Source: a virus
Virus record (IMG/VR): IMGVR_UViG_3300015263_000962
Coordinates: 12,383 to 76,382 of that record
Length of the DNA stretch: 64,000 bases
Direction: 5' to 3' (one strand)
Of this stretch, positions 9,106-58,587 are shown in pieces. The notes under the pieces were generated by a model. The model was not told the origin of the DNA and searched no databases. It was given only the letters and a program-made list of their open reading frames with translations. A program made the translations under genes and the position numbers. Numbering within the stretch: the stretch's first letter is position 1; each line of letters begins with the position of its first letter.

Positions 9106-9486
9106 TCAATCAAGCAAATGATCGAACGGTTTCTTGTATCGCATACAATGGAAGATCATCGCCATCCGACGCTTCTCTTCATTGGTGATTTCCATATTCT
9201 TGTGCCAAGAGCGGCTCCAAGATGTTGTCACTCCCCGTTTGGTTTCGGTTTCGATTGGTCTGAAGTGATTTGACAACTCTTGACAAATACACATGACCAT
9301 TTCGGCTTCAGCAGAAAGACCGTGACAATCTCTCAGATCTTGCATGGCACAAGAACTGATCGTTGTCTTGTATGGACCTTTGCTGATTTCGATGTCCCGA
9401 GGGACGAAGGTATCGCATTCGTATGCGACCGGGTTGATCTTCTTGATCTCTAACTTCCAGCTTTGTTGTAGCCAGTGGTTTCTCAT
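9106..9486 (-). CDS. Small protein with major-capsid fragment (MCP ~275-302) and MRNHWL tag
   Basis: GAAAGGAG RBS; AMQDLRDCHGLSAEAEM..ICQEL vs MCP AQQDLRSQHNLDAEAEL..LAQEI. Confidence 0.7.
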   Translation of the reverse strand: MRNHWLQQSWKLEIKKINPVAYECDTFVPRDIEISKGPYKTTISSCAMQDLRDCHGLSAEAEMVMCICQELSNHFRPIETETKRGVTTSWSRSWHKNMEITNEEKRRMAMIFHCMRYKKPFDHLLD

Positions 9487-9496
9487 AATTCTCCTT

Positions 9497-10084
9497 TCAC
9501 AGAAGATCAGGGTCGATCTCCGTGTTGTCTTGAATGTCCAGTGGAGCCAACTTTTCTCGTAGTTTAAGAAGAGGCGTATAGTCCTCGCCCCACAAGTCGG
9601 CTCGTGCGGCATCATGCCAGAAGTTCCATGTGTTCTCGCTCACCATGCTCTTATAAGGCTGGAGTGCTTCGAACATCGCTGCGGCATACTGTTCCAGACC
9701 TGTCAATCGAAGGCTCTTCAACATCCGTGTGACTCGAAGCATCGTATGATTGAATCTTCGAAGCCACCATGGGGTGTCTGTGGCAGATACGATCAAGACG
9801 CTGTTGGGTTCATCTTCAACCAACTTGAATTCAAGAAAGCTCAGAAAGCGTACAAACGCCTGCTTGACCTTCTCTTGAAGTTCCGGGTCGCTCTGAAACA
9901 CCTGACAGTCCTCTCTGGTCATCACAGGAGCATCGCCGTTCATCATGCTCGGCTCATTGGACGGAAAGATCCACTGGATGTAATCGTGGTCCATTTCCAG
10001 TTGTCCGTTGTTCCATGTGAGAATATCGTCAAGTCGGTGGCCGTTGCAGTTGCCCCGTTCACCTCTGTAAAAATCAACAATCAT
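9497..10084 (-). CDS. Opioid growth factor receptor (OGFr_N)-like domain protein
   Basis: LEMDHDYIQWIFP, NHTMLRVTRMLKSLRLTG. Confidence 0.85.
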   Translation of the reverse strand: MIVDFYRGERGNCNGHRLDDILTWNNGQLEMDHDYIQWIFPSNEPSMMNGDAPVMTREDCQVFQSDPELQEKVKQAFVRFLSFLEFKLVEDEPNSVLIVSATDTPWWLRRFNHTMLRVTRMLKSLRLTGLEQYAAAMFEALQPYKSMVSENTWNFWHDAARADLWGEDYTPLLKLREKLAPLDIQDNTEIDPDLL

Positions 10085-10404
10085 CAGTCATCATCCTCTT
10101 CTTCAATTGTGGCCTTTTTGACTTTTTTGCTTTTGAGAAGCCAGTCCAAAAACCCCTCTTTACTCTTGCGAGTCATAACCTGAATCTCGTAGGAGTTGGT
10201 AGCTGGGTCTTTCTGTCTTACAGAAATGATCCGGTCGCCGCTCGACACGATCTGTGGAATGGTTTCAAATGGATCGGCACCTTGGTCAATGTTAACGATG
10301 ACAGTGAGGTGTTTCGTCATGGTCAAGTCATAGACCATCAAACTGCTCACCATTACAACCAACCCGACCAACATACCAAAAACGATTCGTTGTGCCCATT
10401 GCAT
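10084..10404 (-). CDS. Membrane protein, paralog of 15113-15541
   Basis: TM helix; HLTVIV..DQGADP...KSK..FLDWL shared with paralog. Confidence 0.7.
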   Translation of the reverse strand: MQWAQRIVFGMLVGLVVMVSSLMVYDLTMTKHLTVIVNIDQGADPFETIPQIVSSGDRIISVRQKDPATNSYEIQVMTRKSKEGFLDWLLKSKKVKKATIEEEDDD

Positions 10405-10447
10405 ATTTCACCTCTTGTTTGTTTAAGATAGTGCGGGCGCATGAAAA

Positions 10448-10480
10448 AAGACCGGTGCGCACTTTGGGCGCACCGGTCTT
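10448..10480 (-). terminator. Terminator hairpin
   Basis: 13-bp stem aagaccggtgcgc/gcgcaccggtctt. Confidence 0.75.
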
Positions 10481-10507
10481 CAATTTTATGTATGCAGCTA
10501 CCGTCGA

Positions 10508-13670: not shown

Positions 13671-14177
13671 TCAGTACACGGTGCTGGCGATCAGTCCTTT
13701 GCCGTCTGCACACCATTCTTCCGCAGTCTTCGTGACCACACTGTTGTCCTCCTGACGTACAGGAAGCACTGTGTCTGATGATAACTGACGCACATCAAAC
13801 TCGTCAATCTCTTCTTGGCTCCACTCCGTGATCTCGCCTGTCTTGGGACTACGGAGGGGCTCCAGATGTTGATTCAGAGCGTCCTCACGAGATTCAGCGG
13901 CATACCAGTGTTGCTCACCATCATCAACTTCATAGACGGCCAGCTTGCGATTCAACCAGTAGTTTTTCATGGTCGGTTCTTCTTTCTTTGTTCTCATATC
14001 CCAGAATGGATATTGTTTGACCCAAATTTCAATCAATCGTTCTTCTACAACAATTGGTTGTTCGGCCCGAGGGCCATCCTTCTCTGCGAACACACATCGA
14101 AGGCCATCGTCGTAAACAGCCATCCCTCGTTTGCACTTCTCGCAAACGAAGTGTTTACGCTCCTCGTCCGTCATCAT
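13671..14177 (-). CDS. Hypothetical protein with internal MKNYWL motif (possible second start at 13970)
   Basis: GAGGAG RBS; motif similar to starts of 9486 and 29115 genes. Confidence 0.6.
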   Translation of the reverse strand: MMTDEERKHFVCEKCKRGMAVYDDGLRCVFAEKDGPRAEQPIVVEERLIEIWVKQYPFWDMRTKKEEPTMKNYWLNRKLAVYEVDDGEQHWYAAESREDALNQHLEPLRSPKTGEITEWSQEEIDEFDVRQLSSDTVLPVRQEDNSVVTKTAEEWCADGKGLIASTVY

Positions 14178-15112: not shown

Positions 15113-15541
15113 ATGGCACACAAGGAACCAATGTCGCTGGAAGACCTACCCCAACATCTCAAATCCGTCAGAGCACACGGAGAAACAGGAAGTGCGCCTG
15201 TTGTTGGTATGGGCCAGATCATCGTGCCTAAGAAATCGTTCGGATGGACCAAGGCCCTGTTCGCCATGATCATGTTCATGACGCTGAGCATCGGTGGCCT
15301 TGTGACCTACAACGCCGTCACACCTCAACATCTGACTGTCATTGTGGGGCTCGAACAAAGTGCCGACCCATCTCAAACGATCTCAAGGATCGTCTCAGAC
15401 AGTGGAGGCGAGATCATCGCTGTGAAGCAGAAGGAAGATTCTGTGTACGAAGTCAAGGTATCCACGCACAAGAGCAAGAATTCGTTCTTGGAGTGGTTGC
15501 GTAAAGACAAAGATGTCAAGAAGGCTTCGCTGGAAGATTAG
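15113..15541 (+). CDS. Membrane protein, paralog of 10084-10404
   Basis: TAAATA at 15081, AAGGAG RBS; TM helix and shared C-terminal domain. Confidence 0.7.
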   Translation: MAHKEPMSLEDLPQHLKSVRAHGETGSAPVVGMGQIIVPKKSFGWTKALFAMIMFMTLSIGGLVTYNAVTPQHLTVIVGLEQSADPSQTISRIVSDSGGEIIAVKQKEDSVYEVKVSTHKSKNSFLEWLRKDKDVKKASLED

Positions 15542-15874: not shown

Positions 15875-17329
15875 TTAGATGATGAAGTTGGCGATGCTCA
15901 TGCGTGCGTAGAACTTCGCACCTTCACGGAGCAGCTTCTTGCCGTAGCGGGTCAGAATACCCTTGCGTGGGCAGAAGGATTCAGGATCAAGCACCACAGG
16001 TGTCTGTGTCAGCGGGACGTATGGGCAGTAGAAGTAGCCCGAGTCCATGTAGCTGTCGCCCTTGTAACCCAAAAGGATCTGGCCTTGTGGGAACAGCGGG
16101 TCTTTGTACAGACGCCATCTGTTGTTGATCGTACCGACGTACTGGATACCCAGCGACGAGGTGAACGTCTCAGATGGTGCTGGTGCGAAACCTGCGGTTG
16201 CCGTTTCGAAGACGGACGCAACTTCAGGCGAAGTGACGAGCCAGTTACATCCGCCACGGAGGGTCTTACGATGCACGACGTTCGAAACTTCGACGACCTT
16301 GACATACAGCGACTCGTACTTTTCCTTGATGGTGTCACCGAGGGCTGTGTTGAAGTCCCACACAGCGATAGTACCGGCGTTGTTGCGGAGGTCTGTAAGA
16401 ACCTCACGGTCGATTTCGAGGTTGATTTCCTGAGCCAAAACGGCTGTCAGTTCTGCCTCAGCGTCAAGGTTGTGCTGGGATCGGAGATCCTGCTGAGCTT
16501 CGTAGCTCCAGACAGCCTTCAGCTTGCGGGTCTTGGCGGCGATTTCTTCGCTTTCGACCACGAGGTTCACTTCAGGAAGATCCTGATTGCACTCCATGTT
16601 GTACTCGTAGCTCATGACGAGGTGGTTCGGGCCGGGAGCAACGTCCCATCCGATGGTGACTTCGCCAGTCACGAGGTCCAACGTACCGCTCGTCGGGTTC
16701 GATGTCGGAGCACCGATAGCCGAGAAGCTGAAGGTTCCGTTCTCTGCAACAACATAGGTTGCGACGGCGACCGAACCATCATAGACAGTACCGGTCATGG
16801 TGCCTGCGAGAACAGGAGTGTGCTCCAGCGGAGCGAAAATGGATGTCAGGTCATCGCCAGCGTCAGTGCTGGAAGTTTCGTTCTGCACGAATTGATGCGT
16901 GTAGAAGATTTCCAAGTTGCCATCACCGGATGCCAACTGCTGGAGCGATGTCACGTCGTCCGTTGGGAAGCCGCTTGGTGTCAGGTCGGCACCTCGCATT
17001 CCGCCCTTATTGGACGAGTAGCGGAAACGCAGGTAGTACACCAGACCAGTCGGGCCGAGCAATGGCTGGACCGAGACGATCTTGTTGGCGATCAACTGCG
17101 GGTAGATTCTGCGAACCAGCGGAATGCTGATTCTCTTGAACTGGGCGATGTCCCCAGTATCCGTCATCGCCTCATTCATAAGGCGTTGGTTTTCAAGAAG
17201 CACGGCGGCAGCGGCACGCTCTGTTCGGTTTGTGATGCCATCAAGCATCGACTTGCCGTTTCTCAGCGGACGTGACCAGCGGGCTTCAATCTGACGGGCT
17301 TCGTTAAGATATCTTGCGTTAAAAGACAT
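15875..17329 (-). CDS. gp23: Major capsid protein (T4 gp23-like)
   Basis: LLENQ, LVRR..PQLIA..IVSVQP..GPTG, AKTRKLKA.WS.EAQQDL, GYFYCPYVPL, PRKGILTRYG. Confidence 0.97.
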   Translation of the reverse strand: MSFNARYLNEARQIEARWSRPLRNGKSMLDGITNRTERAAAAVLLENQRLMNEAMTDTGDIAQFKRISIPLVRRIYPQLIANKIVSVQPLLGPTGLVYYLRFRYSSNKGGMRGADLTPSGFPTDDVTSLQQLASGDGNLEIFYTHQFVQNETSSTDAGDDLTSIFAPLEHTPVLAGTMTGTVYDGSVAVATYVVAENGTFSFSAIGAPTSNPTSGTLDLVTGEVTIGWDVAPGPNHLVMSYEYNMECNQDLPEVNLVVESEEIAAKTRKLKAVWSYEAQQDLRSQHNLDAEAELTAVLAQEINLEIDREVLTDLRNNAGTIAVWDFNTALGDTIKEKYESLYVKVVEVSNVVHRKTLRGGCNWLVTSPEVASVFETATAGFAPAPSETFTSSLGIQYVGTINNRWRLYKDPLFPQGQILLGYKGDSYMDSGYFYCPYVPLTQTPVVLDPESFCPRKGILTRYGKKLLREGAKFYARMSIANFII

Positions 17330-21228: not shown

Positions 21229-21485
21229 TTACTCGGGCGCAGCCAGTGATCTCTGATCTCCATCAACGATGTTGTATCAAGAGGGCAGCCCAGCGACTCT
21301 GGCAATAACGTGTCCATCGTACACTTGGGGCAAAGAGCCGTCTCGTCATCATCGGTCCACAAATCGATGTCCTCTACCTGAATAACTTCAAGGCAGTTGT
21401 AGCAACCACAGACCTGTGATTGCAGAACTGCCTCTCTGTTTTTGAAGGCATACATCGGTGCTTTTCTAATGTATTCCTCGCTCAT
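21198..21485 (-). CDS. Cys-rich zinc-binding protein
   Basis: CGCYNC...TALCPKC; coupled to portal stop. Confidence 0.7.
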   Translation of the reverse strand: MSEEYIRKAPMYAFKNREAVLQSQVCGCYNCLEVIQVEDIDLWTDDDETALCPKCTMDTLLPESLGCPLDTTSLMEIRDHWLRPSNHSSPPPKSE

Positions 21486-24031
21486 TAAGACTCCTCTGAG
21501 TAATCAATCTCCTCGTCGTCCATTTCCTTTGCGTAGTTCTGAATCTCAAGATTGAACTTCTTGATTTCTTCCTCATCTGGCTCTGGAATCGGCGAATCCA
21601 TGTTGGTCTGAGGCGCATTACCCGCTTCTGGGGTCGCTTCCATTCCTGTGCTGTCCGCATCCATGTACTTACGCATTCCTTGTGCGCCTTCAGGTGGCGG
21701 TTGCTGTTCTTCGCCCGGCTGACCGCCCAACATTGGGTTCGGACCACCCGGCTCTGTGCTCACTTCGTCCTCGTCTGGGCCGGGCAAACCGACACCAAGC
21801 AACTGAGGATTCTGAGCAATGATTTGGAGCTTCAACTCTTCCAATTTTTGGATTTTGAGTCGGGCCAACATTTTCTTGGCTTCGTCCTCTGGATATTTCA
21901 TCCATTTTGTGAGGATGTCGAAGTCGCTCATCAGTTGTGAGCCCTTCAAGTTGGCCGCATTGTTCAATCGGTTGGTAATGACTTCCGCTCTTGTTAGTTC
22001 TCGCCAGTCAGACGGAGGCGTCATTTTGATCGTCAGATCTTCATAGATCTCTTCCGGGTATCCCAACAATCTCAGATGTCGATCACAGATCTCCCAGAAG
22101 GCATCCTCCATGTGAGACTGCAATCGCTCGATCATGCGGGCGAACTTGATATCCTGAGCCGACAAAGCAATTCGTGTGCTCTGTGTGTCTTCGTTGTTGA
22201 AGTAGTTTCTCGGGAAGTTCAAAGCCGTGAACAGCTTGTTGCGGAAGTACACAGTGTCATCGATCTCGCCGAGGTTTTGAGCACCGGGCAAAGTCTCAAC
22301 ACGGGTATTTGCATTTGGACGAATTGGAATCCAGTAATCTTCGTCTGCCGCTGGAGCGTGCCAGCGTTCCTCAACGCCAGATGCGCCCGGCAGACTTCCG
22401 CCCTTCCGGCTGCTCACCTTCTTCTTCTTGAACTGATCCTTCATACGTTCGATGAAGGCTTCAGCCTTGTTCGGCGGCAACTGGGCCACGTCGATATAGA
22501 AAACACGTCGTTCCGGTGCCCGAGTCAAACGGTACACAACCATGGCGTCTTCCATCATTCTCAACTGATGAGCAGGCCCACGAGCCGCTTCGATCAAAGA
22601 AACGCCATATGGATAGAAGGTCTTTCTGTCATCGCCGATCTTGATGTGAATAATCTGCTCTGGAGCAAACCGAATAGCTGTCGCCTGTTGAAGATCGGCT
22701 TCTGTGGCTTGAGTGACTTCAACCCGAGCCAAGCTCTGGTAGTCCGGGCCTTCCTTCGACTGTTGAAACTCAACCAGCTTGCCTTTGGTTGTTTCGATTC
22801 GGTACATGCTATCAGGCGGCAATGGCACCAGATTAAGAACGCCGTCTTTGGGGTTCTCGGTATCAATGACGATTTCATAGAAGAAGTCGCCCATTGAGAA
22901 GAGCCGTTTCGCCATATCCCACATCTTCTTCTGATCGAAGTTGAGCATCTTGCGATGGAACAACAGATATTCGAGTTCTTCTTGAATCTCGACGTTGTTA
23001 CAGTTGACGGTCATAACTCGACCATCATCGTCCTTCTGGCAGTTGTGAACGATTCCCCAATCTGTGGCGAAGTTCTGATGGCCTTCAACTGACAAGTCGT
23101 AAACATCGATCTCTCTCCATGGTTGAATGCCAATCACACGGCGATGATCCTTCTTCTTGCCGAGCCACTTGAGTTCCTTATTGGAGAAACCGGCTTTCTC
23201 GATACGCTCCCTGACTGTCCTGAAATCACTACCTGTCAACTTGTTGATCTGGCGAACCGACAACCCTTCAGTGACCATCTGGCAATAACTGTTGACCTGC
23301 TTCATCGTTTCTGAGGTCTTGCCGCTCGTCCAATCATCAACAAATTGTCGCTCATGAATCCAACCCTTGTCGTGAGTCCAGATACGGGCGAACTGATTAG
23401 TCTTCAGATTTGTAAGATCTTGCCGTGCCGAGAGTCGGTAGAATGGCATCAACTCCGATCCATGTTCTAAACGGCCAGCTTCAATCCACGTTCGATCCGC
23501 CATCAAGATTCTGTGGTCCGGTGTGCAGATGAAATAACTACCATCGTCCAGCTTCACCTTAATGGTCATGGCTTTCTTGGTCTTGCGTGGATTGAAAGCC
23601 CAGCCTAGCGTGTAGTCACGCTTATCGAAGTCGAAGCAATAGACCAAGAAGCGTTCTTCTTCGCTCTCAGCCAATTCTTGTATTGTTTTGAATCCGTGTG
23701 GCGTTGCAATTTTTGTATCGCCAGCCAAACACGCTTCGTCTGCAAAGACCGTCATCGCCATTTCGATTTCGGCCATATTTCTGAGACGTTCGTACTCTTT
23801 ATATCTGTGGACACGGTTCGTCACCGTGGACAAATCCACAAAATCGTTCGTATCTCGCAGACGGATGGCACCACTGCCACCACCCCACGATCCGTCTTGT
23901 CCCGCCCGAATATCAGGAATTGCGTCAGGTTGTGAAACGCCTGCGCCACCCATATCCCGATGACTTCTTCTGGTCAGCGGATCATCTGTGAATGCGTAAG
24001 TGAATACCTTAAAAAAGTCCCACCAAGCCAT
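21485..24031 (-). CDS. gp20: Portal protein (gp20-like) with intein
   Basis: LRMMEDAMVVYRLTRAPERRVFYIDV, EDYWIP, TLPGAQNLGEIDD..YF.NKL. Confidence 0.95.
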   Translation of the reverse strand: MAWWDFFKVFTYAFTDDPLTRRSHRDMGGAGVSQPDAIPDIRAGQDGSWGGGSGAIRLRDTNDFVDLSTVTNRVHRYKEYERLRNMAEIEMAMTVFADEACLAGDTKIATPHGFKTIQELAESEEERFLVYCFDFDKRDYTLGWAFNPRKTKKAMTIKVKLDDGSYFICTPDHRILMADRTWIEAGRLEHGSELMPFYRLSARQDLTNLKTNQFARIWTHDKGWIHERQFVDDWTSGKTSETMKQVNSYCQMVTEGLSVRQINKLTGSDFRTVRERIEKAGFSNKELKWLGKKKDHRRVIGIQPWREIDVYDLSVEGHQNFATDWGIVHNCQKDDDGRVMTVNCNNVEIQEELEYLLFHRKMLNFDQKKMWDMAKRLFSMGDFFYEIVIDTENPKDGVLNLVPLPPDSMYRIETTKGKLVEFQQSKEGPDYQSLARVEVTQATEADLQQATAIRFAPEQIIHIKIGDDRKTFYPYGVSLIEAARGPAHQLRMMEDAMVVYRLTRAPERRVFYIDVAQLPPNKAEAFIERMKDQFKKKKVSSRKGGSLPGASGVEERWHAPAADEDYWIPIRPNANTRVETLPGAQNLGEIDDTVYFRNKLFTALNFPRNYFNNEDTQSTRIALSAQDIKFARMIERLQSHMEDAFWEICDRHLRLLGYPEEIYEDLTIKMTPPSDWRELTRAEVITNRLNNAANLKGSQLMSDFDILTKWMKYPEDEAKKMLARLKIQKLEELKLQIIAQNPQLLGVGLPGPDEDEVSTEPGGPNPMLGGQPGEEQQPPPEGAQGMRKYMDADSTGMEATPEAGNAPQTNMDSPIPEPDEEEIKKFNLEIQNYAKEMDDEEIDYSEES
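23042..23731 (-). mobile_element. 230-aa intein in portal (residues 101-330)
   Basis: CLAGDTKI start, CTPDHRIL block B, VYDLSV..HQNF block F, HN followed by +1 Cys. Confidence 0.93.
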
Positions 24032-24135: not shown

Positions 24136-24660
24136 ATGTCTGGAAAATCCAGATGGCTGTTCGCAGCATCTTTCCCGAAACTCGGGGAGATACCTCCCCA
24201 GTTCGTTAAGTTGATCACTCGTCCTGAGTGGTCTGAAGAAACTAAATCACCAACTCCAAACGGCAGCTTTACTACAAGTTACATAGGGTTCGTACAATCC
24301 ACCTGTCCCGATCTGTTCGAGATATTGGGCGGGTTCTATAAGTTCGGCAGCGATCTCTTCACAGAAGAAGGCAAGATGCTCGAAGAGATCGCACAATACA
24401 TGGGATCGGCCACCTTGGACTTCCAAGTTACCGTGGCTCCAAAATGCCCCAACTGTAATCACTCATTGGGTCTATTCTTTGGAAGCAGTGGCCCGCTGGA
24501 AACCATAGAGCGATGGAGCTTCTCTGGTGTCTGGCCGCACTCCGTCAATTTTGGCGAGTTGTGCTATTCCTCAAGTGAGGAGATTGATCTGGAAATCACA
24601 TGGAGATACAAGACATGTGAATACGAGCACCTGATGCTCAAGGAGAAACAGAATGTCTGA
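24136..24660 (+). CDS. Tail-tube (gp19)-like paralog 1
   Basis: ERWSFSGVWPHSVNFGELCYSSSEEIDLEITWRY resembles gp19-family C-terminus. Confidence 0.6.
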   Translation: MSGKSRWLFAASFPKLGEIPPQFVKLITRPEWSEETKSPTPNGSFTTSYIGFVQSTCPDLFEILGGFYKFGSDLFTEEGKMLEEIAQYMGSATLDFQVTVAPKCPNCNHSLGLFFGSSGPLETIERWSFSGVWPHSVNFGELCYSSSEEIDLEITWRYKTCEYEHLMLKEKQNV

Positions 24661-25411
24661 AACAACACAGTTCCCACCATGGAACACAGAAAACTATGGA
24701 TTTGATTTTGGAGATGGACTTCCCGAGAACACGAAAGAGATGCCGAAAATCTATGGCCTCAAGACGCCCGAGAAGCACAAGTTTGTTTTTACAGATGGAG
24801 TCCCCGAGCCACCCAAGAAGGGTGAAGTGATTTCCAAGCCCGGAAGCATGGGCCTTGGAAAGCTCGGCATCACCAACACAACTTTCAGAAGAAAGTGGCG
24901 TTGGAGCGTCTCAGGACAGTTCGGCGATCTGAATCTCTCAGAAAAGATCATCAAAACCCAACGTCCGCAGATTGACTCAGAAAGCGGCCTCGTTGAAGAC
25001 AAGACGTTTAAGACGCACTTCGATGAAGCCCCGAAAGATCTGATCGACATCGTGACCACCTTCATGTGGCAACATCCTGATGACCAACTCACAAGGGAAG
25101 GCATCGAGAGATGGAACAACAAGCTCGGCACACTGAAGCTGACTCTTTATGATGGCACAGCAACAGTCATGGAGACATGGGCTTTTGAGGGTGTACATGT
25201 CAAATCTGTCGAATTTGGTGAACTGGATTACTCATCTAGTGAGGAACCAATCATCGATGTTGTGTGGGGATTCAAAAAATGCACTTGGGAAACGCCTGCT
25301 TACTTTTCACCCATCTCGGGAACGACGAAAAAATCGTCGAAGTGCTTGACCGGCACCCCAACATATGTGTGTACCACACGGGAAATGAATACCATCACCC
25401 GGACGATTTAG
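24653..25411 (+). CDS. Tail-tube (gp19)-like paralog 2
   Basis: FRRKWRW, LTLYDG..VMETW.FEGV...SVEFGELDYSSSEE; shares motif with upstream ORF. Confidence 0.6.
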   Translation: MSETTQFPPWNTENYGFDFGDGLPENTKEMPKIYGLKTPEKHKFVFTDGVPEPPKKGEVISKPGSMGLGKLGITNTTFRRKWRWSVSGQFGDLNLSEKIIKTQRPQIDSESGLVEDKTFKTHFDEAPKDLIDIVTTFMWQHPDDQLTREGIERWNNKLGTLKLTLYDGTATVMETWAFEGVHVKSVEFGELDYSSSEEPIIDVVWGFKKCTWETPAYFSPISGTTKKSSKCLTGTPTYVCTTREMNTITRTI

Positions 25412-28740: not shown

Positions 28741-29115
28741 TTAATTGTTTTCGGCGTAGTTGTATTCGTAGGAGATAACGAATCCGTCTTGAAGTTCTTC
28801 TGGGATCGCAATCGTGCCCATTTCATAACAAATGAAACCAAATCTCTCATCTGTCTCCTTCCATTGCAGTCGCCCATCTCCATCATCTGTGAACAACTTG
28901 TTGTTGCAAATACCGAAGATTGAGTTGTTCAACAAGCTGTGAAATTTCAGATTCGCCGTCACACTCATCAACTGTGCGACCCTTTCCCACTTCTGAGGCT
29001 TCTCGTCTTGGACGAACTGCCATTCATAGCAAAGATCCAAAGTGCATCCTTGAGCCAATTCTACGAGATTGAGCGTGTCTTTTACGTCACGTCTCTTCAA
29101 CCAATGATTTTTCAT
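28741..29115 (-). CDS. Stand-alone copy of MCP region ~125-248 with MKNHWL tag
   Basis: LVELAQG-CTLDLCYEWQFVQDE vs MCP LQQLASGDGNLEIFYTHQFVQNE; VISYEYN vs VMSYEYN. Confidence 0.7.
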   Translation of the reverse strand: MKNHWLKRRDVKDTLNLVELAQGCTLDLCYEWQFVQDEKPQKWERVAQLMSVTANLKFHSLLNNSIFGICNNKLFTDDGDGRLQWKETDERFGFICYEMGTIAIPEELQDGFVISYEYNYAENN

Positions 29116-31104: not shown

Positions 31105-32322
31105 TTGTATATGACGACCAAACAAGTCCTCGCCTTTCTGCTTACCTTGAGCACGCTCGGATGTATCGCTCTTGGTGTGAAGTACCTACATGACCATCGA
31201 GTCAAGCCACCAGTGGTGGTAGAACAACCTCCCAGCCACGACGGGGAAACGACCCCTCTCCCAGAGGTCAAAGAGCATACTGTCGAGGAAGCCGTCGCCT
31301 CGATCACAGAAGAGGAACTCAAGACGGACCTGTACTATTTGGCCTCTGACGAACTGGAAGGCCGCATGTCTGGTAAGAAGGGCAATGTAACGGCTGCGGC
31401 TTTCATTAAGGCCGAATATGAGAAGATGGGTCTGGAAACCATGTATCACAAGTTTCCGATTCGCCGTCTCAATCCGGGGCCGAAGAATGAGCAAGGTGAT
31501 GATTTCACTCAGAACATCTATGCTTGGATTCCCGGCAATGACCCGAAGTATAAGGACGAAATCATTGTCATCGGGGCACACATGGATCACATTGGCTATG
31601 GCCCCAGCATGTCTCGGGCTCCTCGCCGCTTGGAAATCCACAATGGAGCCGATGACAACGCCTCGGGCACTGTGGGTCTGCTGGAGATTGCCGAAGCCTT
31701 CTCGTTGGTTAAGGATAAAGTGAAGCGAACCATCGTCTTTCAGTCCTACAGTGCCGAAGAGATGGGCCTGATCGGCAGCCGCTACTATTGCGATCACCCG
31801 GTGTTTCCACAGGGAAGCCCAGACATCAAGAAGCACATCTTCATGTTGAACATGGACATGATCGGGTACTTAAACAAAGGCGTGTACTTCGCCGGGTTCG
31901 ATGCCGCTGAAAGCTCTGTTGACATTTCAGCCATAATCAACGATCTTAACGAAAAGTACACGTTTGCCAGAAGAATCACCAGCCGAGGGAGTGGCGGAAG
32001 TGATCACGCTTGCTTCTACAACAAAAAGGTGCCTATTGCTTTCCTCCACACTGGAGGGCACCCGTACTACCACACGCCAGACGATACAGCGGACAAAATC
32101 AATTACGCTGGTATCGAGCAAGTTGCCCGTTATGGCTTCGAGTTGGCGTGGAGAGTGGCGCAATCTGAAACGCCGCCTCGCTTCAACCATGCGTCCTTTA
32201 AGGAAATGGACTATGTTCATGACCATGGACATCCTGAAGTTCCGTTCGCTCATCCTTATCATCAGGAAGAGTGGGAACGTGAGCACGGACATCCACACAA
32301 TCACGGACGAGACGACGAATAG
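31105..32322 (+). CDS. M28-family metallopeptidase, membrane anchored
   Basis: GAHMDHIG, GADDNASG, AEEMGLIGS, NMDMIG, SDHA, YYHTPDD; start may be 31111. Confidence 0.92.
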   Translation: MYMTTKQVLAFLLTLSTLGCIALGVKYLHDHRVKPPVVVEQPPSHDGETTPLPEVKEHTVEEAVASITEEELKTDLYYLASDELEGRMSGKKGNVTAAAFIKAEYEKMGLETMYHKFPIRRLNPGPKNEQGDDFTQNIYAWIPGNDPKYKDEIIVIGAHMDHIGYGPSMSRAPRRLEIHNGADDNASGTVGLLEIAEAFSLVKDKVKRTIVFQSYSAEEMGLIGSRYYCDHPVFPQGSPDIKKHIFMLNMDMIGYLNKGVYFAGFDAAESSVDISAIINDLNEKYTFARRITSRGSGGSDHACFYNKKVPIAFLHTGGHPYYHTPDDTADKINYAGIEQVARYGFELAWRVAQSETPPRFNHASFKEMDYVHDHGHPEVPFAHPYHQEEWEREHGHPHNHGRDDE

Positions 32323-32334: not shown

Positions 32335-32784
32335 ATGACCAACGAAGAAATCATTGAATTGCTGCAAGAAGACCTGAAAAACGAACGAAAGCATTTGGCT
32401 GCATACACACAGTTTGCCGTCAATCTACGGGGCCTCCATCGAGAAGAACTCCGGGAGTTCTGTGAGAAGGAAGCCGCTGGCGAACTCCAGCACGTTCTAC
32501 AATTCTCAGAACTCATTGTCCATCTGGGCGGTGTTCCGGGCATCGAAGTCAACCCCTATCCAACCGACATCAGTTGTCCGGTGGCGATCATGAAGGCCAT
32601 CGTGGAAATGGAAGACGAAGTTGCCGATAAGTATGCCGAGCGTCTACGTCAGACGCACGAAATGGAGAATGCAGCGACGGCTTACGTCCATGTCTTCTAT
32701 GAAGAACAAATTGCCGACTCGTGGCGCACGGCCCGAGAGGTGGAGCAGATGATTCCACAAGGGAGGCACGTTGACCACGACTGA
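32335..32784 (+). CDS. Ferritin/bacterioferritin-like protein
   Basis: L.NE..H..Y, E..GELQH, LGGVP four-helix pattern. Confidence 0.75.
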   Translation: MTNEEIIELLQEDLKNERKHLAAYTQFAVNLRGLHREELREFCEKEAAGELQHVLQFSELIVHLGGVPGIEVNPYPTDISCPVAIMKAIVEMEDEVADKYAERLRQTHEMENAATAYVHVFYEEQIADSWRTAREVEQMIPQGRHVDHD

Positions 32785-33040
32785 CGTGAAGCTCTCCAAG
32801 AGAGAGATCCGAGTCCTGTTAGATGCCTTAGAAGAAGCGAATCGAAAGTACGTTTCACGGGGAGGTTCACGGGACTTCGCTTGGGAAGATGAGCATGATG
32901 CTTTGGAGAAAAGATTAACGGAAGCTCTTCAACAGTCACCTGAACCAAAGGGCAAAAGCGATCAGACGATTCAGGCTGTTATGGGGACCATCATCTTCCT
33001 CCAGATCATCTTTTTTGCGTACTTGTTCCTCTGCATGTAA
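32771..33040 (+). CDS. Small protein with C-terminal TM helix
   Basis: GGGAGG RBS, TTG start. Confidence 0.55.
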   Translation: MTTTDVKLSKREIRVLLDALEEANRKYVSRGGSRDFAWEDEHDALEKRLTEALQQSPEPKGKSDQTIQAVMGTIIFLQIIFFAYLFLCM

Positions 33041-35739: not shown

Positions 35740-36348
35740 TTACATGACAAAGAACATGTATCCGAAGAAGGCCAACTGTGCGATCAGAATGCCTGCCATA
35801 ACGATGTTAATGACACCATCGTTTTTCTTCTTGTCAGCCACATTCTTCTCGACCACTGATTGGGCATTGAAGATTGGTTGCGGCTGTGGCTCATAAGCCA
35901 TTGGCATTGCTTCTGACTTGTGATGGATGACAGGCTCCATGTGCTCCATAAGAGCGGAGACACCTGCAACAACACCATCAGCTACCAGCTTGTCGATCTC
36001 ATCTTTGCGAACATAGTCGCCATCGACGATCTTGGCGTGGTCGGCCAGACCAATACGTTCACGCACTTGCATAGGCGGTTCTGCATCTCTGGAAATGACC
36101 TCACGCTGCACGACTTCACCGTCACGCACCAACTCATGAGTTTCTTTGGCGACGATCTTCTTATGCTCTCTGACAATTCGCTTTTCAAGTTTCTTCGGTC
36201 GTTTTTCCTCAGCAAAGATTTCAACAATCTCATTGCCATCTTCATCGAAGGAAATGTGACGTTCTGCGTGGCGACCGTCATCCAATGTCAGATGTTGAAT
36301 CTGCACATGGTCACAATGTTCGTCGCAGCAGTGATGCTTATTAGCCAT
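35740..36348 (-). CDS. Protein with C-terminal membrane anchor
   Basis: GGGAGG RBS; TACATA upstream; C-terminal TM helix. Confidence 0.7.
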   Translation of the reverse strand: MANKHHCCDEHCDHVQIQHLTLDDGRHAERHISFDEDGNEIVEIFAEEKRPKKLEKRIVREHKKIVAKETHELVRDGEVVQREVISRDAEPPMQVRERIGLADHAKIVDGDYVRKDEIDKLVADGVVAGVSALMEHMEPVIHHKSEAMPMAYEPQPQPIFNAQSVVEKNVADKKKNDGVINIVMAGILIAQLAFFGYMFFVM

Positions 36349-36436
36349 AATTCCCCTCCCGTGGGTAAGTTCATAGAGATGATCTACTACACCTCTATGT
36401 ATGCAGAGTTGATCGGATTTTGGGTGTGGATTTCGG

Positions 36437-37012
36437 TCAGAGACCCCACCTCATTCTGAGTCTTTCCCAGAACGATTGTTTTTTCTCACGGACTTTCAGG
36501 GCTCGCTCCTGATCGTGCTGGGCTTTGGATTCTTTTTCTTTTTTCTTGGACGCCGTGTACAGACGGTCGATCATGGATTCCCATTCTTCGAACGGAGCAT
36601 AGGCTTCAAGTTCGCCAGCCACTTCTTTGTAAACCAGATACCCTTTGTAGGTCACTGTCAGCTTGTGATTGGCTTGGTGGTACTGAACCTCCAAGTGCAT
36701 CCCTCGACTAAGCCCATCGAATATGTAGCCCTCGTGATGCACGAAGTCATCGCCCATCTCGGCGATCTCATCACGAGACACCAACGGACCTTTCTGTTCG
36801 CTCATTGTGGTCTCGAAAACCTCGTCCACAAAATCATCATAGGGATCATCCATGAAAACTTGATCAAAGAGACCACTGCCCTGACGCAGTATCGGACTGC
36901 CCAGAGTTCTCACAATCACGCCAAGCTTCCCAGAAGGCCCCATCAAATTCTTCTTCGTGGCTTCTATGGTTCGCTTTTCACGGATGACTGCTTCTTTTTG
37001 ATCCCAAGGCAT
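36437..37012 (-). CDS. Hypothetical protein
   Basis: AGGAGGAGG RBS. Confidence 0.7.
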   Translation of the reverse strand: MPWDQKEAVIREKRTIEATKKNLMGPSGKLGVIVRTLGSPILRQGSGLFDQVFMDDPYDDFVDEVFETTMSEQKGPLVSRDEIAEMGDDFVHHEGYIFDGLSRGMHLEVQYHQANHKLTVTYKGYLVYKEVAGELEAYAPFEEWESMIDRLYTASKKKEKESKAQHDQERALKVREKKQSFWERLRMRWGL

Positions 37013-38947: not shown

Positions 38948-39266
38948 ATGTGCTTTTCAACCGATATGCCTGAGTGGCTTGAAGAAAGCCGTGGTTTCCA
39001 AATGGTCGAAACGGTCAGCGATGACTACGACGATGACTGGGATGAAGATGATCTCGACGATCTCGACGACGATGATTATGACGACGACGACTACAACACC
39101 TACTCATACGAGGATGACCTCGACGAAGACGACGAGGATGACGAAGACGACCTAGACGACCTCGATGATGACGATTGGGGCGACGACGATGACGACGACC
39201 TCGATGATGACGATTGGGACGACGACGAATCTCGACGACGATGATTGGGATGACGACGACGAATGA
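38948..39266 (+). CDS. Asp-rich low-complexity protein with apparent frameshift near 39230
   Basis: AGGAGG RBS; in-frame stop at 39244, but LDDDDWDDDDE continues in the +1 frame to a TGA overlapping the next ATG. Confidence 0.65.
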
Positions 39267-39841
39267 AGTTGGCGACTGAGTATCTTGTAAGAACAGGAGC
39301 GATCAGGGAATTCTTTAAGACGCCGTGCTCTTTGTGTCTCAATTCTTTGACACTGGGAGCACCAATGGTGTTGACAATTGAAGAATTCTCTGATCGCCCT
39401 TTCTTCAAGGTCACTCAGTACATTCTTCGAGACATCCCGCCCGAGATCCAAGTTCATGAAGTTGTCGATGTGTTCAATAGCGACAAGGTTTTGGTGCCGG
39501 GCTATCGGCCCATTTCCTACCGGGAATCTTACTTCCCCAGAGGGCTGAATTCTTACAATCACCCGATGCCAGAGTATCTCTGGAACCTCTACACGAAACA
39601 GTCATTGAATTCAGACAACCATAGAAGACACCGGGAGCACTGGCTGTGGTCTGTCTTTTCTCGCTTGGCTTTCGGCGACATCTACGACCAGATGGACGTT
39701 CTCCGGTTTCGGCCCACCCTGAAATTGACTTGGCAAGGCTGGAAGACCCGGATGCTTTTTGACAACTCGGTCGCTGCTGAGTTGATCTTCATGAAAAGCT
39801 TCCCGAAGCTCATTTTGCCTTCATCTTCTTCATCCTCTTGA
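39263..39841 (+). CDS. Hypothetical protein, possible degenerate MCP fragment (~395-433)
   Basis: KVLVPGYRPISYRESYF vs MCP QILLGYKGDSYMDSGYF. Confidence 0.5.
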   Translation: MKLATEYLVRTGAIREFFKTPCSLCLNSLTLGAPMVLTIEEFSDRPFFKVTQYILRDIPPEIQVHEVVDVFNSDKVLVPGYRPISYRESYFPRGLNSYNHPMPEYLWNLYTKQSLNSDNHRRHREHWLWSVFSRLAFGDIYDQMDVLRFRPTLKLTWQGWKTRMLFDNSVAAELIFMKSFPKLILPSSSSSS

Positions 39842-41150: not shown

Positions 41151-42074
41151 GTGTCGCAAAATAAAACTCTACTCCTGTTGGGGTCCGTGCTGATGATGGC
41201 TGTTGTCAACTTCTTCATGGTTGTTGGCTATCAGAACCACAAAATTCCGGGATACGATCTCTCGACGAATCCCATCGACAACATGCCGTTGATTGACAAC
41301 GACCCATTTGCCGCTCTGGCACATGGCGGGGCTCCTATCGAGCAAAGAGACGCTGAATTTCGCAGATGGCTCTCTCAAGGGGTCAAGATTCGAGTCAGCG
41401 GTGCATCTGGTTCAGGAACCATCGTCTACTTCAATGAAGATGACGGTTGGGCCTATGTGCAGTCCTGCGGCCATCTGTGGTCCGGGAACATGAGTGCCGA
41501 GGAAGGCAAGCGGCGAAAGATTACATGCACTGTCCAGACTTGGTATCACAACGAAACCAAATTGGGCCAACCGCAAGACTACCAAGCAGAGGTTCTTTAC
41601 TACAGCAACAGCCGTGGTCGAGACTGTAGCCTTCTGAGGTTCCGTCCAGACTGGGTGCCCAACTACCTTCCTATCGCTCCAGAAGACTTTCAGTATCATC
41701 CGGGAATGAGACTGCATTCGGTGGGCTGCGACGGCGGCAGAGAGGTTGCACACTACGATGTAGAAGTTGTTGGTTTAAGAGATGGCGATTGGCCCGATCT
41801 CGTCACCACAAGAAACAGCCCCCGACCGGGACGATCCGGTGGAGGGCTGTCATCCGATGACTACTACGTTGGAATCTGCTGGGGAACATCCAGCTACGAC
41901 GGTGATGGGAACGGTTACTTCACGCCACTCAACACCATTCGTGAGTACAACAAGATGAACGGTTACGGTTGGCTTAATGATGTGGGCTTCAGTCTGGCAC
42001 GCCAGATTCCCATCATCGACCGAAACAATCCACAAGGAAAATATCCTCGTGATTACATCCCATTGCCTCGTTAG
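41151..42074 (+). CDS. Trypsin-like serine protease, membrane anchored
   Basis: GSGT, SCGHL, RDCSLL, PGRSGGGL catalytic triad motifs. Confidence 0.85.
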   Translation: MSQNKTLLLLGSVLMMAVVNFFMVVGYQNHKIPGYDLSTNPIDNMPLIDNDPFAALAHGGAPIEQRDAEFRRWLSQGVKIRVSGASGSGTIVYFNEDDGWAYVQSCGHLWSGNMSAEEGKRRKITCTVQTWYHNETKLGQPQDYQAEVLYYSNSRGRDCSLLRFRPDWVPNYLPIAPEDFQYHPGMRLHSVGCDGGREVAHYDVEVVGLRDGDWPDLVTTRNSPRPGRSGGGLSSDDYYVGICWGTSSYDGDGNGYFTPLNTIREYNKMNGYGWLNDVGFSLARQIPIIDRNNPQGKYPRDYIPLPR

Positions 42075-50372: not shown

Positions 50373-51395
50373 TTATGCGTTGCCTCCCGAATTTTCCGCA
50401 GCAATTAAGCACCCACGAGCCACAGAATAGACTGGATCACTGGGACGGATCACCCGACCAATATCCACAGGAATCCCCGAATTGCGAACCATCTTCTCGA
50501 AAAACTTATCGAATCCCGGTGGGCTGGCTGTTCCACCAGCAACCACGATGTCGATTGGTTGATCCAGACGAGCGTTCTTATCCTTGTTTTCTTCAAGGCC
50601 CTTCTTCAGTCCGCCGACCGTCTTCTCGATCATCAGTTCGTACTGAGTCTTGATGGCTCGTTCGACGAGTGTGTTGGGTTCTTTGCCCAGATCAATCTTG
50701 GTTTTCTCCTTGTTGATGAAGGCGATGGTCTCGCCAGTTGCTTTAGCAGCCTGACGATCAATCCAGTCACCCGAGTTCACAAGTGCGAAGCTGAAGACCT
50801 CGGCACCGAAGAGGGAGAAGGCCACGTTGACCATACCTGCGCCACAGGAGATGCCGATGCCGGTGAACATCCTGTCGGCCAGTTCTGAGTACACAAGTGC
50901 CATGCCTTCATTGATTGGACGGGCATCGACTCTGTATCCCTCTTCGCTGCTGTATGCCTTAAAGATGGACTCCAGAATCTTACGGTGATAGTCGGCGTCT
51001 GTTTCTTCGTTGATGGCATTGGCCGGAACGGAGTAGTACAGAATCTCTTTGTCGTAAGAGATTTCGCCGAGCAGGCTGTGAATCATGATGTTCATGATCT
51101 GGAAGGCATCCTTTTCCTTCGGATTCACACATCCGTCTTTCATTGGACGTTTCAGATCGATTTGGTTCATGGTGTAGGCCATGTTGATTGCAGCCTCACC
51201 CAACGCATACGCCATGTTGGCGTCTTCACGATGAATCAAGGGCACTCCCGATTTCTTCATCATGTTGAATACGAAGTCGTTCTGGAGTTCCATTTCCAAG
51301 AAAGCATTAACCTCTCTCTTGTAAACAAAATCGCCAGCTTCGTTCCGCTTGCAGCAGATCAAGTTGTATGTTCCGCAGTCGAAACCGATGCTCAT
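50373..51395 (-). CDS. Actin-like ATPase (MreB/ParM superfamily)
   Basis: IGFDCGTYN (phosphate 1), INEGMA, GISCGAGMVN (phosphate 2), VVAGGT (adenosine), VARG. Confidence 0.85.
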   Translation of the reverse strand: MSIGFDCGTYNLICCKRNEAGDFVYKREVNAFLEMELQNDFVFNMMKKSGVPLIHREDANMAYALGEAAINMAYTMNQIDLKRPMKDGCVNPKEKDAFQIMNIMIHSLLGEISYDKEILYYSVPANAINEETDADYHRKILESIFKAYSSEEGYRVDARPINEGMALVYSELADRMFTGIGISCGAGMVNVAFSLFGAEVFSFALVNSGDWIDRQAAKATGETIAFINKEKTKIDLGKEPNTLVERAIKTQYELMIEKTVGGLKKGLEENKDKNARLDQPIDIVVAGGTASPPGFDKFFEKMVRNSGIPVDIGRVIRPSDPVYSVARGCLIAAENSGGNA

Positions 51396-56264: not shown

Positions 56265-56303
56265 AACCATACAAGTGATACACTATTGCCAAGGAGGTGC
56301 CTT

Positions 56304-57782
56304 ATGTTTCAAGGAAAGAACCTAATCAACGGCGAATGGACATCTGACAAGTCCAGTTTCGAAGCCGTCAACCCCTCAACTGAGCTAATCTACGGGACGT
56401 TTCCCAACTCAGGCGAGGCAACTGTCAAAAGTGCGGTAGCTGCCGCCCGAGCGGCATTCGCCACTTGGAAAAAGGAAAGCCGAGTTCGTCGAGGAGAGTT
56501 GTTTGACAAGCTCGCCCAATTGCTTAAGAGGGACCATGAGCGAATCCGAGACGCCATCTCAATCGAGACCGGGAAGAATCTTAACGAATCCCACGCAGAG
56601 GTCATCGAGGCCCTCCACATGTGCCAGTTCGCTGCTGCATCTGGAAGAGAGCCACATGGACAGTGTGTTGCGTCCGAACTTCCTACGAAGGACGCCTACG
56701 TCGTCAGGAAGCCTCGTGGCGTTGTTGCTGTTATCTCTCCTTGGAACTTCCCTGCCGCTATTGGCTCTTTTTGGAGTTCCGCTCCTGCTCTCGTGGAAGG
56801 TAACTGCGTCGTTCACAAACCTTCTGAACTTACCCCAATGGTCAACCAGATCATCGCTGAACTCTATGAGGAAGCAGGATTCCCCGCAGGAGTCTTTAAT
56901 CTCGTTCATGGTGATGGGGGTGCTGGTGCGGTTCTGGTGAGATCTGAGGTGGATGTCATCCTCTTCACCGGATCAGCGGAAGTCGGTCAAGACATCCGCA
57001 AGCATTGTGCTGAGACCCATTCCAAAACTTGTAGTATCGAATGTGGCTCCAAATCCGCCACAATCGTCTTTGAAGACGGCGATCTCGATCTGGCCCTAGA
57101 TGCCACCGTCGCCTCTTCCTTCAAGCTGAGCGGCCAGCGGTGCGTTTCTTCGAGCCGAATTCTCATCCAGAGATCCATCTTCGATGGATTCAAGGACAAG
57201 TATGTGGAGCGAGTGCAGAACCTTATCACTGGCGATCCTTTCAGCGAAGGCCCTCCATTCTACGGCCCGCTGATCTCAGAAGAACAGATGAACAAGGTGC
57301 TCGACTTCAACCATCTGGCACGCAACGATGCCGACACTACCGTCTATTTGGGTGGTGGACGAGCACAGAATCCAGATGGCAGCGTCAAGGGCTGGTTCTT
57401 GCGTCCCTTTGTGTATAGCTGCGAGTGGGCCGACAAGCCATTCTTGAAGCAGGAAGTCTTCGGGCCACACGTCGCCTTGATTCCCTTTGATACGCTCGAA
57501 GACGCCATCCGCATCTACAACGATACAGACTATGGGCTTGCCTTGGGGGCAATCACAGATGATTACCGCAAGCATCGAGTGCTGGCCCAAGAATGTACCA
57601 CTGGGATGCTCTATATCAACGGAGGCAGCATCGCTGCCGAGAGCCATCTTCCGTTCTCAAGTTGGAAGAAGAGTGGCTACGGGGCCAGTGCGGCAGCCAC
57701 ATGGAAGGCTGTGACGCACACCATGGCGGTGACGGTCAATTACGAGTCTGGCAAAGTCAGTTGGGCTCAGGGAATGAAGTAG
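56304..57782 (+). CDS. Aldehyde dehydrogenase
   Basis: ISPWNFP, KPSELTP, FTGSAEVG, ECGSK, SGQRC, EVFGP. Confidence 0.95.
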   Translation: MFQGKNLINGEWTSDKSSFEAVNPSTELIYGTFPNSGEATVKSAVAAARAAFATWKKESRVRRGELFDKLAQLLKRDHERIRDAISIETGKNLNESHAEVIEALHMCQFAAASGREPHGQCVASELPTKDAYVVRKPRGVVAVISPWNFPAAIGSFWSSAPALVEGNCVVHKPSELTPMVNQIIAELYEEAGFPAGVFNLVHGDGGAGAVLVRSEVDVILFTGSAEVGQDIRKHCAETHSKTCSIECGSKSATIVFEDGDLDLALDATVASSFKLSGQRCVSSSRILIQRSIFDGFKDKYVERVQNLITGDPFSEGPPFYGPLISEEQMNKVLDFNHLARNDADTTVYLGGGRAQNPDGSVKGWFLRPFVYSCEWADKPFLKQEVFGPHVALIPFDTLEDAIRIYNDTDYGLALGAITDDYRKHRVLAQECTTGMLYINGGSIAAESHLPFSSWKKSGYGASAAATWKAVTHTMAVTVNYESGKVSWAQGMK

Positions 57783-57790
57783 GAGGACAA

Positions 57791-58246
57791 TTGGCTTTCA
57801 CTGTTGAATTCCGGGAGCCGATCTATGATTCAGGGACACACCAATGGATCTTGATCGGCTCTCTGGATCTTAAGATCGATGAGCGGCACTATCGCACTCT
57901 CACCAAGAAACTTTGGTTGTCACAAGAAGCACGCTTCAATGAAGGGTGGTTCTTGCAGGCAAAGCGAACGATTCGTGAAGAGTTGGAACAAAGGGCAAAG
58001 CGGGAACTGGCTGCCATGTTGCAGCATCGGCCTCCGCAAGAAGTTGCCACGTTTGAACGCATCAGCATTCCGTTGGTCCGTCGCATCTATCCACAGTTGA
58101 TTGCCTCACAGATCGTCGGTGTTCAGCCGTTGTCTGGGCCGACATCTTTGACCTTCTATGAACGATTCAGATATTCAGGCAATCGAGGCGGCTGCATCGT
58201 CAAGGAAGCTATCGAGCAAGTCAACTGGAAGACAGAGGGTTTTTGA
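57791..58246 (+). CDS. Protein with MCP 64-110 (Gol-region) copy and NWKTEGF tail
   Basis: AGGAGG RBS, TTG start; 36/47 aa identical to own MCP. Confidence 0.85.
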   Translation: MAFTVEFREPIYDSGTHQWILIGSLDLKIDERHYRTLTKKLWLSQEARFNEGWFLQAKRTIREELEQRAKRELAAMLQHRPPQEVATFERISIPLVRRIYPQLIASQIVGVQPLSGPTSLTFYERFRYSGNRGGCIVKEAIEQVNWKTEGF

Positions 58247-58587
58247 TGACACAAGGGATTGAACTTCAGATCAACATTCAGGTGCCCGTTCCGCAAGGTA
58301 TGGAAATCCAAGGCATTAGTGTGAGCTTCGGCGAACCAACACTGACCTACTATCCGCCGCAGTATATTCCACGACAATTGTTCGGACAGCAGCAGCAGCA
58401 TTATGTTTCGCCTCAACATCGTGAGATCGAACTGAACATCCAAACCGAAGAAATTCGAGCCCGAGAGCGAGGGTTGCGTGCTTACTGGTCAGAAGAGTCA
58501 GAGGCAGATCTGTTGGCTTGGAGTCAACAACCATGGAAGCCTACTCCAAAAGATGAGAAGGCAAATTGGAAGGAAGAAGGTTTCTGA
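58246..58587 (+). CDS. Protein with MCP 253-282 copy and NWKEEGF tail
   Basis: TGATG coupling; 14/30 aa identical to own MCP. Confidence 0.75.
   Translation: MTQGIELQINIQVPVPQGMEIQGISVSFGEPTLTYYPPQYIPRQLFGQQQQHYVSPQHREIELNIQTEEIRARERGLRAYWSEESEADLLAWSQQPWKPTPKDEKANWKEEGF

Follow-up and report, generated by a model that had tools for sequence, protein, structure and literature searches.

Four small, intact genes in a 64,000-nucleotide stretch of phage DNA each encode a different piece of the phage's own major capsid protein (MCP), joined to one of two short peptide tags at one end of the product. The stretch analysed here—the window—comprises bases 12383–76382 of the IMG/VR virus fragment IMGVR_UViG_3300015263_000962 (76,382 bp), and comparisons with relatives show that this tagged-fragment design recurs genome-wide in related megaphages and that the pieces are old duplicates under purifying selection. 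The sequence facts call for a function that depends both on likeness to core proteins and on a common label; tentatively, we favour the view that the pieces would mimic conserved surfaces of core proteins or stand in for them as decoys. The literature searched yielded no account of tagged capsid fragments, which agrees with the suggestion of an earlier, sequence-only reading of this DNA that the design was undescribed.

The window comes from a megaphage whose capsid protein is of the Gp23 type. CheckV put the completeness of the 76,382-bp fragment at 15%, implying a genome of roughly 500 kb. A T4-like head module lies on the minus strand, comprising in order the portal, a 578-aa open reading frame (ORF), the prohead protease (Peptidase_S77), a scaffold-like ORF (an acidic coiled coil) and the MCP, with the large terminase gene further along the same window, beyond the module. 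The closest named record is the uncultured phage LR756511 (595 kb; MCP identity 77%), and IMG/VR holds many relatives with MCP identities of 78–91%. Related IMG/VR contigs of 459, 533, 343, 254 and 223 kb are referred to as G001 to G005, respectively; the 533-kb G002 is complete and was read genome-wide for tags and core-protein pieces.

The parent MCP aligns to T4 gp23 structures. It was searched by tblastn against the whole window and, separately, a profile of seven aligned MCPs was used in hhalign. This self-search had been asked for beforehand by the sequence-only reading, which held that four small genes were different fragments of the MCP, and all four were recovered (Table 1): the four best non-self tblastn matches in the window were exactly the genes named, all remaining matches had E values above 1.8, and profile E values for pieces 2 to 4 ran from 8e-12 to about 3e-5. 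The starts that the same reading had described, with ribosome-binding sites or translational coupling, were found for every piece—TTG at 57791 preceded by AGGAGG in piece 1, ATG at 29115 and at 9486 with a GAGG-type site before each in pieces 2 and 4, and a start overlapping the stop codon of piece 1 (TGATG at 58246) in piece 3.

Table 1. Capsid-fragment genes of the window, their parent gene and two further genes considered alongside them.
Feature	Coordinates	Strand	Product or result
Piece 1	57791..58246	+	151 aa: private folded N-domain (residues 1–78), MCP 15–121-like segment, C-tag VNWKTEGF-stop
Piece 2	28741..29115	-	124 aa: N-tag MKNHWLKRR, then MCP 123–251-like insertion (I) domain
Piece 3	58246..58587	+	113 aa: MCP 251–283-like segment, then C-tag ANWKEEGF-stop
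Piece 4	9106..9486	-	126 aa: N-tag MRNHWLQQ, MCP 268–303-like spine-helix segment, private C-terminal part
Full-length MCP, parent of the fragments	15875..17329	-	484 aa; Pfam Gp23, E 1.8e-84
Third N-tag gene, not a capsid piece	13671..13970	-	99 aa, MKNYWLNRK; found by motif scan
Claimed fifth fragment, outside the family	39263..39841	+	hhalign probability 0.1%, E 0.51; no Pfam match; no tag

Each piece covers only 30–130 MCP residues and none holds a complete HK97 fold (N-arm, E-loop or I-linkers, P and A domains). Partial homology to Gp23 (PF07068) is present, with piece 1 scoring 44.4 bits against a cut-off of 24.4; pieces 3 and 4 fall below that cut-off at 11.7 and 12.1 bits, and a protein atlas search returned Gp23-labelled clusters only. 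The claim that the fragments tile the MCP held in part: here they run over MCP residues 15–303, but pieces 3 and 4 overlap (251–283 versus 268–303), and tiling does not stand as a general rule, since relatives carry redundant sets with different cuts. No piece derived from beyond MCP residue 303 was found in the 76-kb contig. A proposed fifth fragment at 39263–39841 had to be given up (Table 1), for it also lacks any plus-strand tblastn match to the MCP at E ≤100. The ORF just upstream of it ends in a degenerate Asp-rich repeat array (39021–39260, plus strand; GAC/GAT codons, D-D-D-W/L units).

The strongest tblastn match belongs to piece 1 (57926–58192 versus MCP 15–110; 49% over 98 aa, E 2e-20), and a recount gave exactly the 36 of 47 identical residues previously reported over MCP 64–110. 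In its AlphaFold2 model, residues 1–78 have a predicted local distance difference test score (pLDDT) of about 90 and residues 84–151, the MCP-like arm and tag, are disordered; a fold search with the private N-domain gave middling, unspecific matches only, the best (Z 7.5) to LptE-like folds. Orthologues of piece 1 were found (P0002 and P0003), together with many relatives that combine an N-arm with a tag. The MCP-like segment includes the N-arm, or Gol-equivalent, region: MCP 57–106 aligns to the N-terminal region of T4 gp23*, and piece 1 is a free-standing segment aligning to gp23 ...VRRAIPNLIAFDICGVQPMNSPTG..., which in T4 exists only within the full capsid protein but here forms a separate tagged mini-gene. 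Dozens of such separate Gol-equivalent mini-genes are present in metagenomes. We take the Gol region of T4 gp23 to be residues 93–122. The positions of M98 and L106 in PMC9546572 agree with this assumed numbering. The region is the most conserved part of gp23 and binds EF-Tu in T4 (PMC3014915), while the gp23 N-terminal region as a whole is flexible, with scaffold, neighbouring capsomers, Soc and portal as partners; it touches the scaffold in the prohead and later becomes the N-arm and N-fist (PMC9546572). By homology to the T4 Gol region, an N-arm piece could hold EF-Tu; a co-fold of piece 1 residues 78–151 with Escherichia coli EF-Tu, run without controls, scored 0.00 and is evidence neither way.

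Piece 2 follows the large terminase gene, 36 nt downstream, and is barely visible to pairwise comparison (tblastn 29079–28747 versus MCP 125–248, E 0.8). A word-based search for relatives returned the query alone; exhaustive phmmer yielded a family of 115–148-aa proteins (P0093–P0102) that all start MKN.W[LIV] and all end ...SYEY, some of them retaining the MCP motifs GGFP.DD..SLQQ and QFV.NE. Compared with the seven-MCP profile, the profile of this family aligned to MCP 123–251 with 97.5% probability (E 8e-12). The AlphaFold2 model of piece 2 (pLDDT 84) has a beta domain at residues 30–124 and a disordered tag at residues 1–12. Foldseek gave no match at E ≤1e-3; the closest fold was that of phage P1 capsid protein residues 197–304 (Z 6.5, root-mean-square deviation 4.4 over 85 residues), a middling score, but one that agrees with the profile result. 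In T4, the insertion domain juts from the capsid and docks on the neighbouring subunit (PMC9546572). A scan for sigma-70 promoters and terminators near piece 2 gave chance-level results only, and the single occurrence of the T4 late-promoter motif TATAAATA in the window is uninformative.

The MCP segment in piece 3 corresponds to the P-domain strand and the beginning of the spine helix (tblastn 58423–58512 versus MCP 253–282, 14 of 30 identical, E 6e-4; hhalign E 2.8e-5). Its orthologue, of 70 aa with the same tag, sits in a syntenic triad of genes in five IMG/VR contigs. Piece 4 closes a small operon, after an OGFr_N-like gene, and matches the MCP at residues 278–303 by tblastn (9348–9271, E 2e-3) and over the full segment given in Table 1 by hhalign (E 2.9e-5). 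Word-based searches for relatives of either piece returned the query alone or nothing, and piece 4 had no close homologue but itself in a set of 5.8 billion proteins. Neither piece has close relatives outside the phage, so that conservation is argued from the triad in the case of piece 3 and from the tag in that of piece 4.

Some features of the surroundings of these pieces deserve mention. Matches to the window among contigs from sequencing runs came from the source sediment sample itself and otherwise from short pieces of relatives. Contigs from two other sediment and soil runs match the UDP-glucose dehydrogenase gene from the very base that follows the piece 3 stop codon and diverge upstream of this 58587/58588 boundary; the fragment genes that end at 58587 may thus occupy a replaceable cassette position. 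The first gene of the piece 4 operon (10084–10404, minus strand; 106 aa) is a partial paralogue of a membrane protein encoded beside the MCP gene (15113–15541, plus strand), with 45% identity to its C-terminal half over 98 aa (E 4e-24). A Peptidase_C39 gene of the double-glycine leader peptidase type (8154–8732, plus strand) lies about 400 bp from piece 4, and in G002 about 1.2 kb separates its homologue from a tandem pair of tagged genes, likewise in the region downstream of the MCP; this peptidase may be connected with the tags.

That each of the four capsid pieces bears one of two common tags was borne out, far above chance. The C-tag NWK.EGF-stop (tag A) occurs twice in the 76-kb contig against a mean of 0.005 in 200 shuffles, and the N-tag M[KR]N.W[L] three times against a mean of 0.035. 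In this contig all tagged ORFs but one are MCP pieces, yet in relatives the tags are not capsid-specific. The exception here, the third N-tag gene (Table 1), has a single weak similarity (E 1e-3, 33% over 54 aa) to residues 182–231 of a 755-aa helicase-like ORF within the 12 kb upstream of the window, and may be a tagged piece of a non-capsid protein. Variation in the tags takes the form of synonymous codons, including AGC/TCC serine switches, with no DNA-level repeat, a pattern of conservation as peptides. The N-tag MKN.WL is strictly N-terminal and disordered, and is followed by L-x-E only in some members of the piece 2 family; in capsid-targeting proteins of T4, an N-terminal leader of about 10 residues precedes an L/I-x-E site at which the prohead protease cuts.

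Every related megaphage examined carries one full MCP and one to seven dispersed MCP pieces (one to seven in each of G001 to G005), and no second full-length MCP was found in complete relatives. LR756511 has five (MCP 135–207, 161–245, 172–245, 315–435 and 426–470), one of which starts MKNHWL and two of which are fused to zinc ribbons. The sole MCP piece of G001 ends in tag A, as in the window, while most MCP pieces of G002 to G005 end in a different common tag, KK.YRSIDDPWE (tag B). In G002, the tag [YW]RSID[DE].W is present on 18 ORFs and the N-tag MKN.WL on five; the tagged products include pieces of the MCP (five to six), of a gp32-like single-stranded DNA-binding protein (SSB; three) and of a gp5-like baseplate hub (one), together with a copy of the prohead protease (Peptidase_S77 residues 48–170, 39% identity, E 2.5e-27) whose ELDHP and SSRG motifs have other residues in place of the His and the Ser, respectively. 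A portal piece in the same genome is untagged. Altogether, about 10 of 13 dispersed core-protein pieces in G002 bear a tag, compared with about 3% of genes overall (Fisher p ~4e-14, assuming roughly 700 genes). The commonest class in public data is the N-arm piece, found dozens of times as proteins of 83–160 aa on contigs of up to 272 kb and carrying ...RISIPLVRRIYPQLIA..VQPL.GP... followed by one of two tails.

Other tagged ORFs, in both tag lineages, encode small membrane proteins, zinc-ribbon proteins and proteins of no recognisable kind. Since pieces of other core proteins and unrelated small proteins bear them as well, the tags are general labels, and the capsid pieces form one class of their carriers.

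Several candidates for the origin, role or reader of the tags were considered and set aside. The window encodes an actin-like protein (50373–51395, minus strand; Pfam Volactin, E 2.4e-69) that is kept at 62–79% identity in all five large relatives and so belongs to the core genes of the megaphage group. As tag readers, this Volactin-like protein and the MCP are both too conserved across lineages with different C-tags, and a 164-aa ORF adjoining piece 2, with a faint tetratricopeptide repeat match, is not conserved in G001 or G002. Cleavage by the prohead protease does not fit the tag residues. An origin of the C-tag in the C-terminal tip, or sliding-clamp-binding tail, of SSB was likewise rejected: the full-length gp32-like ORF of G001 has the acidic end ...ELESMEG in place of tag A, and in G002 tag B is present on truncated gp32 copies only and on no ORF longer than 290 aa.

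Evidence from selection indicates that these are functional genes rather than debris. Piece 1 and the MCP use the same codon at only 16 of their 36 identical residues (dN, non-synonymous divergence, 0.25; dS, synonymous divergence, 4.3, saturated); with dS saturated and residues kept, the copy is old and its peptide under selection. A DNA-pattern scan of IMG/VR for the C-tag returned 18 loci, five of which are the tandem triad, located behind an aldehyde dehydrogenase gene and syntenic with 57791–58587. Its members—an MCP ~395–430 piece, the piece 1 orthologue and the piece 3 orthologue—all end W..EGF-stop, and their dN/dS values between two IMG/VR lineages are 0.03, 0.33 and 0.41, the last of these for the piece 3 orthologue. 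The sequence-only reading had named frameshifts or dN/dS near 1 as signs of decay; neither was seen. That the pieces are neutral debris, chance ORFs left by illegitimate recombination in a very large genome, is accordingly very improbable, and for the families of pieces 1 and 2, these two included, it has already been refuted: the lack of close homologues of pieces 3 and 4 in the databases searched and the variation of fragment sets between genomes would fit it, but intact ORFs with proper starts, conserved residues at saturated dS, peptide tags common to several lineages and the strong tag–fragment association do not.

Known systems resemble parts of this design. The capsid-targeting sequence (CTS) of T4 internal proteins and Alt, and the cargo peptides of encapsulins, are likewise short terminal peptides common to unrelated small proteins, in T4-like phage proteins in the one case and read by an HK97-fold shell in the other; however, the tags described here have no sequence likeness to the CTS, stand at either end of the protein, occur also on membrane proteins and SSB pieces, include C-tags that have no CTS counterpart and are followed by no conserved protease site. 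The T4 vertex protein gp24, a full-length paralogue of gp23, is also an additional product of a capsid-derived gene within one genome, but it has the complete HK97 fold, which pieces of 30–130 residues cannot form. In T4-like phages, genes in pieces (nrdA split by mobE, split gp43) also place parts of one protein in separate genes, but these parts are adjacent and non-overlapping, sum to a whole enzyme and replace the intact gene, whereas here an intact MCP gene exists alongside pieces that are dispersed, do not make up the whole and in part overlap. Truncated mimics are familiar from other conflicts: poxvirus K3L is a pseudosubstrate of PKR, and Fv1 and enJS56A1 are Gag-derived restriction factors against retroviruses. 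These too are cut-down copies mistaken for a full-length conserved protein, but in each of those cases one gene imitates a protein of the host or a rival virus, unlike a tagged repertoire of pieces of a virus's own core proteins.

We put the probability that mimicry of conserved core-protein surfaces is the mechanism at about 35%, and consider it the most likely one. Each mini-protein displays one interaction element of the MCP taken out of its usual fold—the N-terminal arm (Gol-equivalent), the insertion domain of the surface, or the strand of the P domain with the spine helix—and joined to a short disordered terminal peptide (the N-tag MKN.WL or the C-tag NW..EGF-COOH). The core-protein piece would serve as a specific bait and the tag as an address or docking label read by one partner. 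The pieces would then occupy proteins that recognise the conserved phage core proteome, chiefly the immune sensors with which hosts detect capsid, portal, SSB and the like, and the tag would carry the bound complex to a common sink or place. Mimicry is ranked first because the sources of the pieces are protein classes that bacterial sensors reportedly detect (PMC13581612, PMC3014915), because invariant motifs are kept and because most pieces lie among accessory genes; in the structural models of pieces 1 and 2, moreover, a disordered arm or tag beside a folded domain is the build expected of a bait that takes up its fold on binding. Core phage proteins sensed by bacterial STAND receptors include the MCP, tail proteins and polymerases (PMC13581612).

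Several points weigh against mimicry of this kind. A Lit-type trap should be set off, not blunted, by a free Gol-like peptide; the tags are also carried by membrane and zinc-ribbon proteins that are not fragments, so that the tag system alone does not point to immunity; most MCP pieces of LR756511 have no recognisable C-tag; and mimicry of assembly partners would explain the sequence facts equally well. A more ambitious form of the decoy idea seems possible but rather doubtful: dozens of mini-genes, each fusing a piece of one of the phage's best-conserved proteins (capsid, protease, portal, SSB or baseplate hub) to a lineage-specific address peptide, would form an evolvable repertoire that intercepts host pattern-recognition receptors of the core phage proteome, and the tag would hand the sensors to one phage-encoded reader. 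If true, captured sensors would be sequestered or destroyed, a viral counterpart to innate immune receptor repertoires.

The reading ranked second, possible but rather doubtful, places the pieces in the head. MCP pieces would bind scaffold, portal or neighbouring MCP as their parent segments do, and the mini-proteins would be loaded into the prohead, the MCP propeptide and N-arm serving like a capsid-targeting sequence, or would modulate the assembly, size or decoration of a very large capsid, with the tags as head-addressing labels comparable to the T4 CTS or encapsulin cargo peptides. Most fragment sources are indeed head-module proteins (MCP, prohead protease and portal), in T4 the gp23 N-terminal region touches the scaffolding core of the prohead and the I domain its neighbouring subunit (PMC9546572), some relatives fuse a complete propeptide to the N-arm (P0004) or a propeptide to a zinc ribbon (MCP 2–61), and piece 2 sits in a structural module behind the terminase gene. 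However, the same tags mark gp32 SSB and baseplate-hub pieces and small membrane proteins, the MCP is an unlikely tag reader because the C-tag differs wholly between lineages with 80–90% identical MCPs, the piece 2 family sequences, read directly, have no consistent L/I-x-E protease site after the N-tag, and pieces 1, 3 and 4 lie among metabolic and accessory genes.

It is improbable that the pieces are weapons against co-infecting related phages, truncated core proteins that would co-assemble with those of a rival as dominant negatives, much as the host-encoded factors Fv1 and enJS56A1 act on retroviruses; this reading is ranked third. They keep motifs invariant across the whole megaphage clade, all their sources are self-assembling or oligomeric core proteins, and two conserved motifs of the protease copy are missing their His and Ser; but N-arm pieces are 77–100% identical to the resident MCP over a core of 40 residues and would poison the phage's own assembly too, and no self-resistance feature is visible. 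The notion of a second capsid protein split into pieces and reassembled by C-tag/N-tag pairing of successive pieces, prompted by abutting boundaries (the ...EGF of piece 1 aligns to MCP SGF 119–121, piece 2 covers 123–251 and piece 3 begins at 251) and by the tag order C-tag, N-tag, C-tag, N-tag, is most improbable. Against it, and enough to refute it for the most part, stand the overlap between pieces 3 and 4, the lack of anything past MCP residue 303 in the 76-kb contig, redundant or permuted sets (three I-domain pieces in LR756511; the IMG/VR tandem order 395–430, N-arm, 262–310; the spine helix before the N-arm in P0060), and tag counts that are not 1:1 (18 C-type versus five N-type in G002) and extend to non-fragment proteins.

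If the pieces are mimics, they would represent a new principle of virus–host or virus–virus conflict, in which a virus copies its own conserved parts to blind those that recognise them; the fragments would then reveal which capsid, portal, SSB and protease surfaces are recognised in nature, and would bear on how bacterial immune sensors see phages. If they are assembly parts, they would bear on the building and loading of 500-kb phage capsids. Either way, the terminal tags, which differ between lineages, would amount to a system for addressing proteins in megaphages, and experiments can look for its reader.

The remaining gene content of the window includes several further observations. The portal gene (21485–24031, minus strand; Portal_T4, E 6e-78) contains an intein in its N-terminal part (Intein_splicing, E 5.8e-12, residues 115–330). 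Three auxiliary genes (9497–10084, minus strand; 41151–42074 and 31105–32322, plus strand) are unusual for a phage, the first encoding an OGFr_N-like protein (E 2e-18) and the others a trypsin-like and an M28 peptidase, and a cluster of sugar-nucleotide and glycosyltransferase genes occupies about 51.6–59.5 kb of the window. Two otherwise unrelated ORFs (32753–33040, plus strand, and 35740–36450, minus strand) have in common a C-terminal hydrophobic segment resembling a tail anchor (43% over 30 aa). Finally, a pair of tandem paralogues lies at 24136–25411 (plus strand), the second of which has the motifs FPPWNTENYGFD and YGLKTPEKH; both motifs also occur in the gp5-like baseplate hub of G002 and in an N-tagged mini-ORF of that genome, and the second paralogue may be another core-protein-derived piece.

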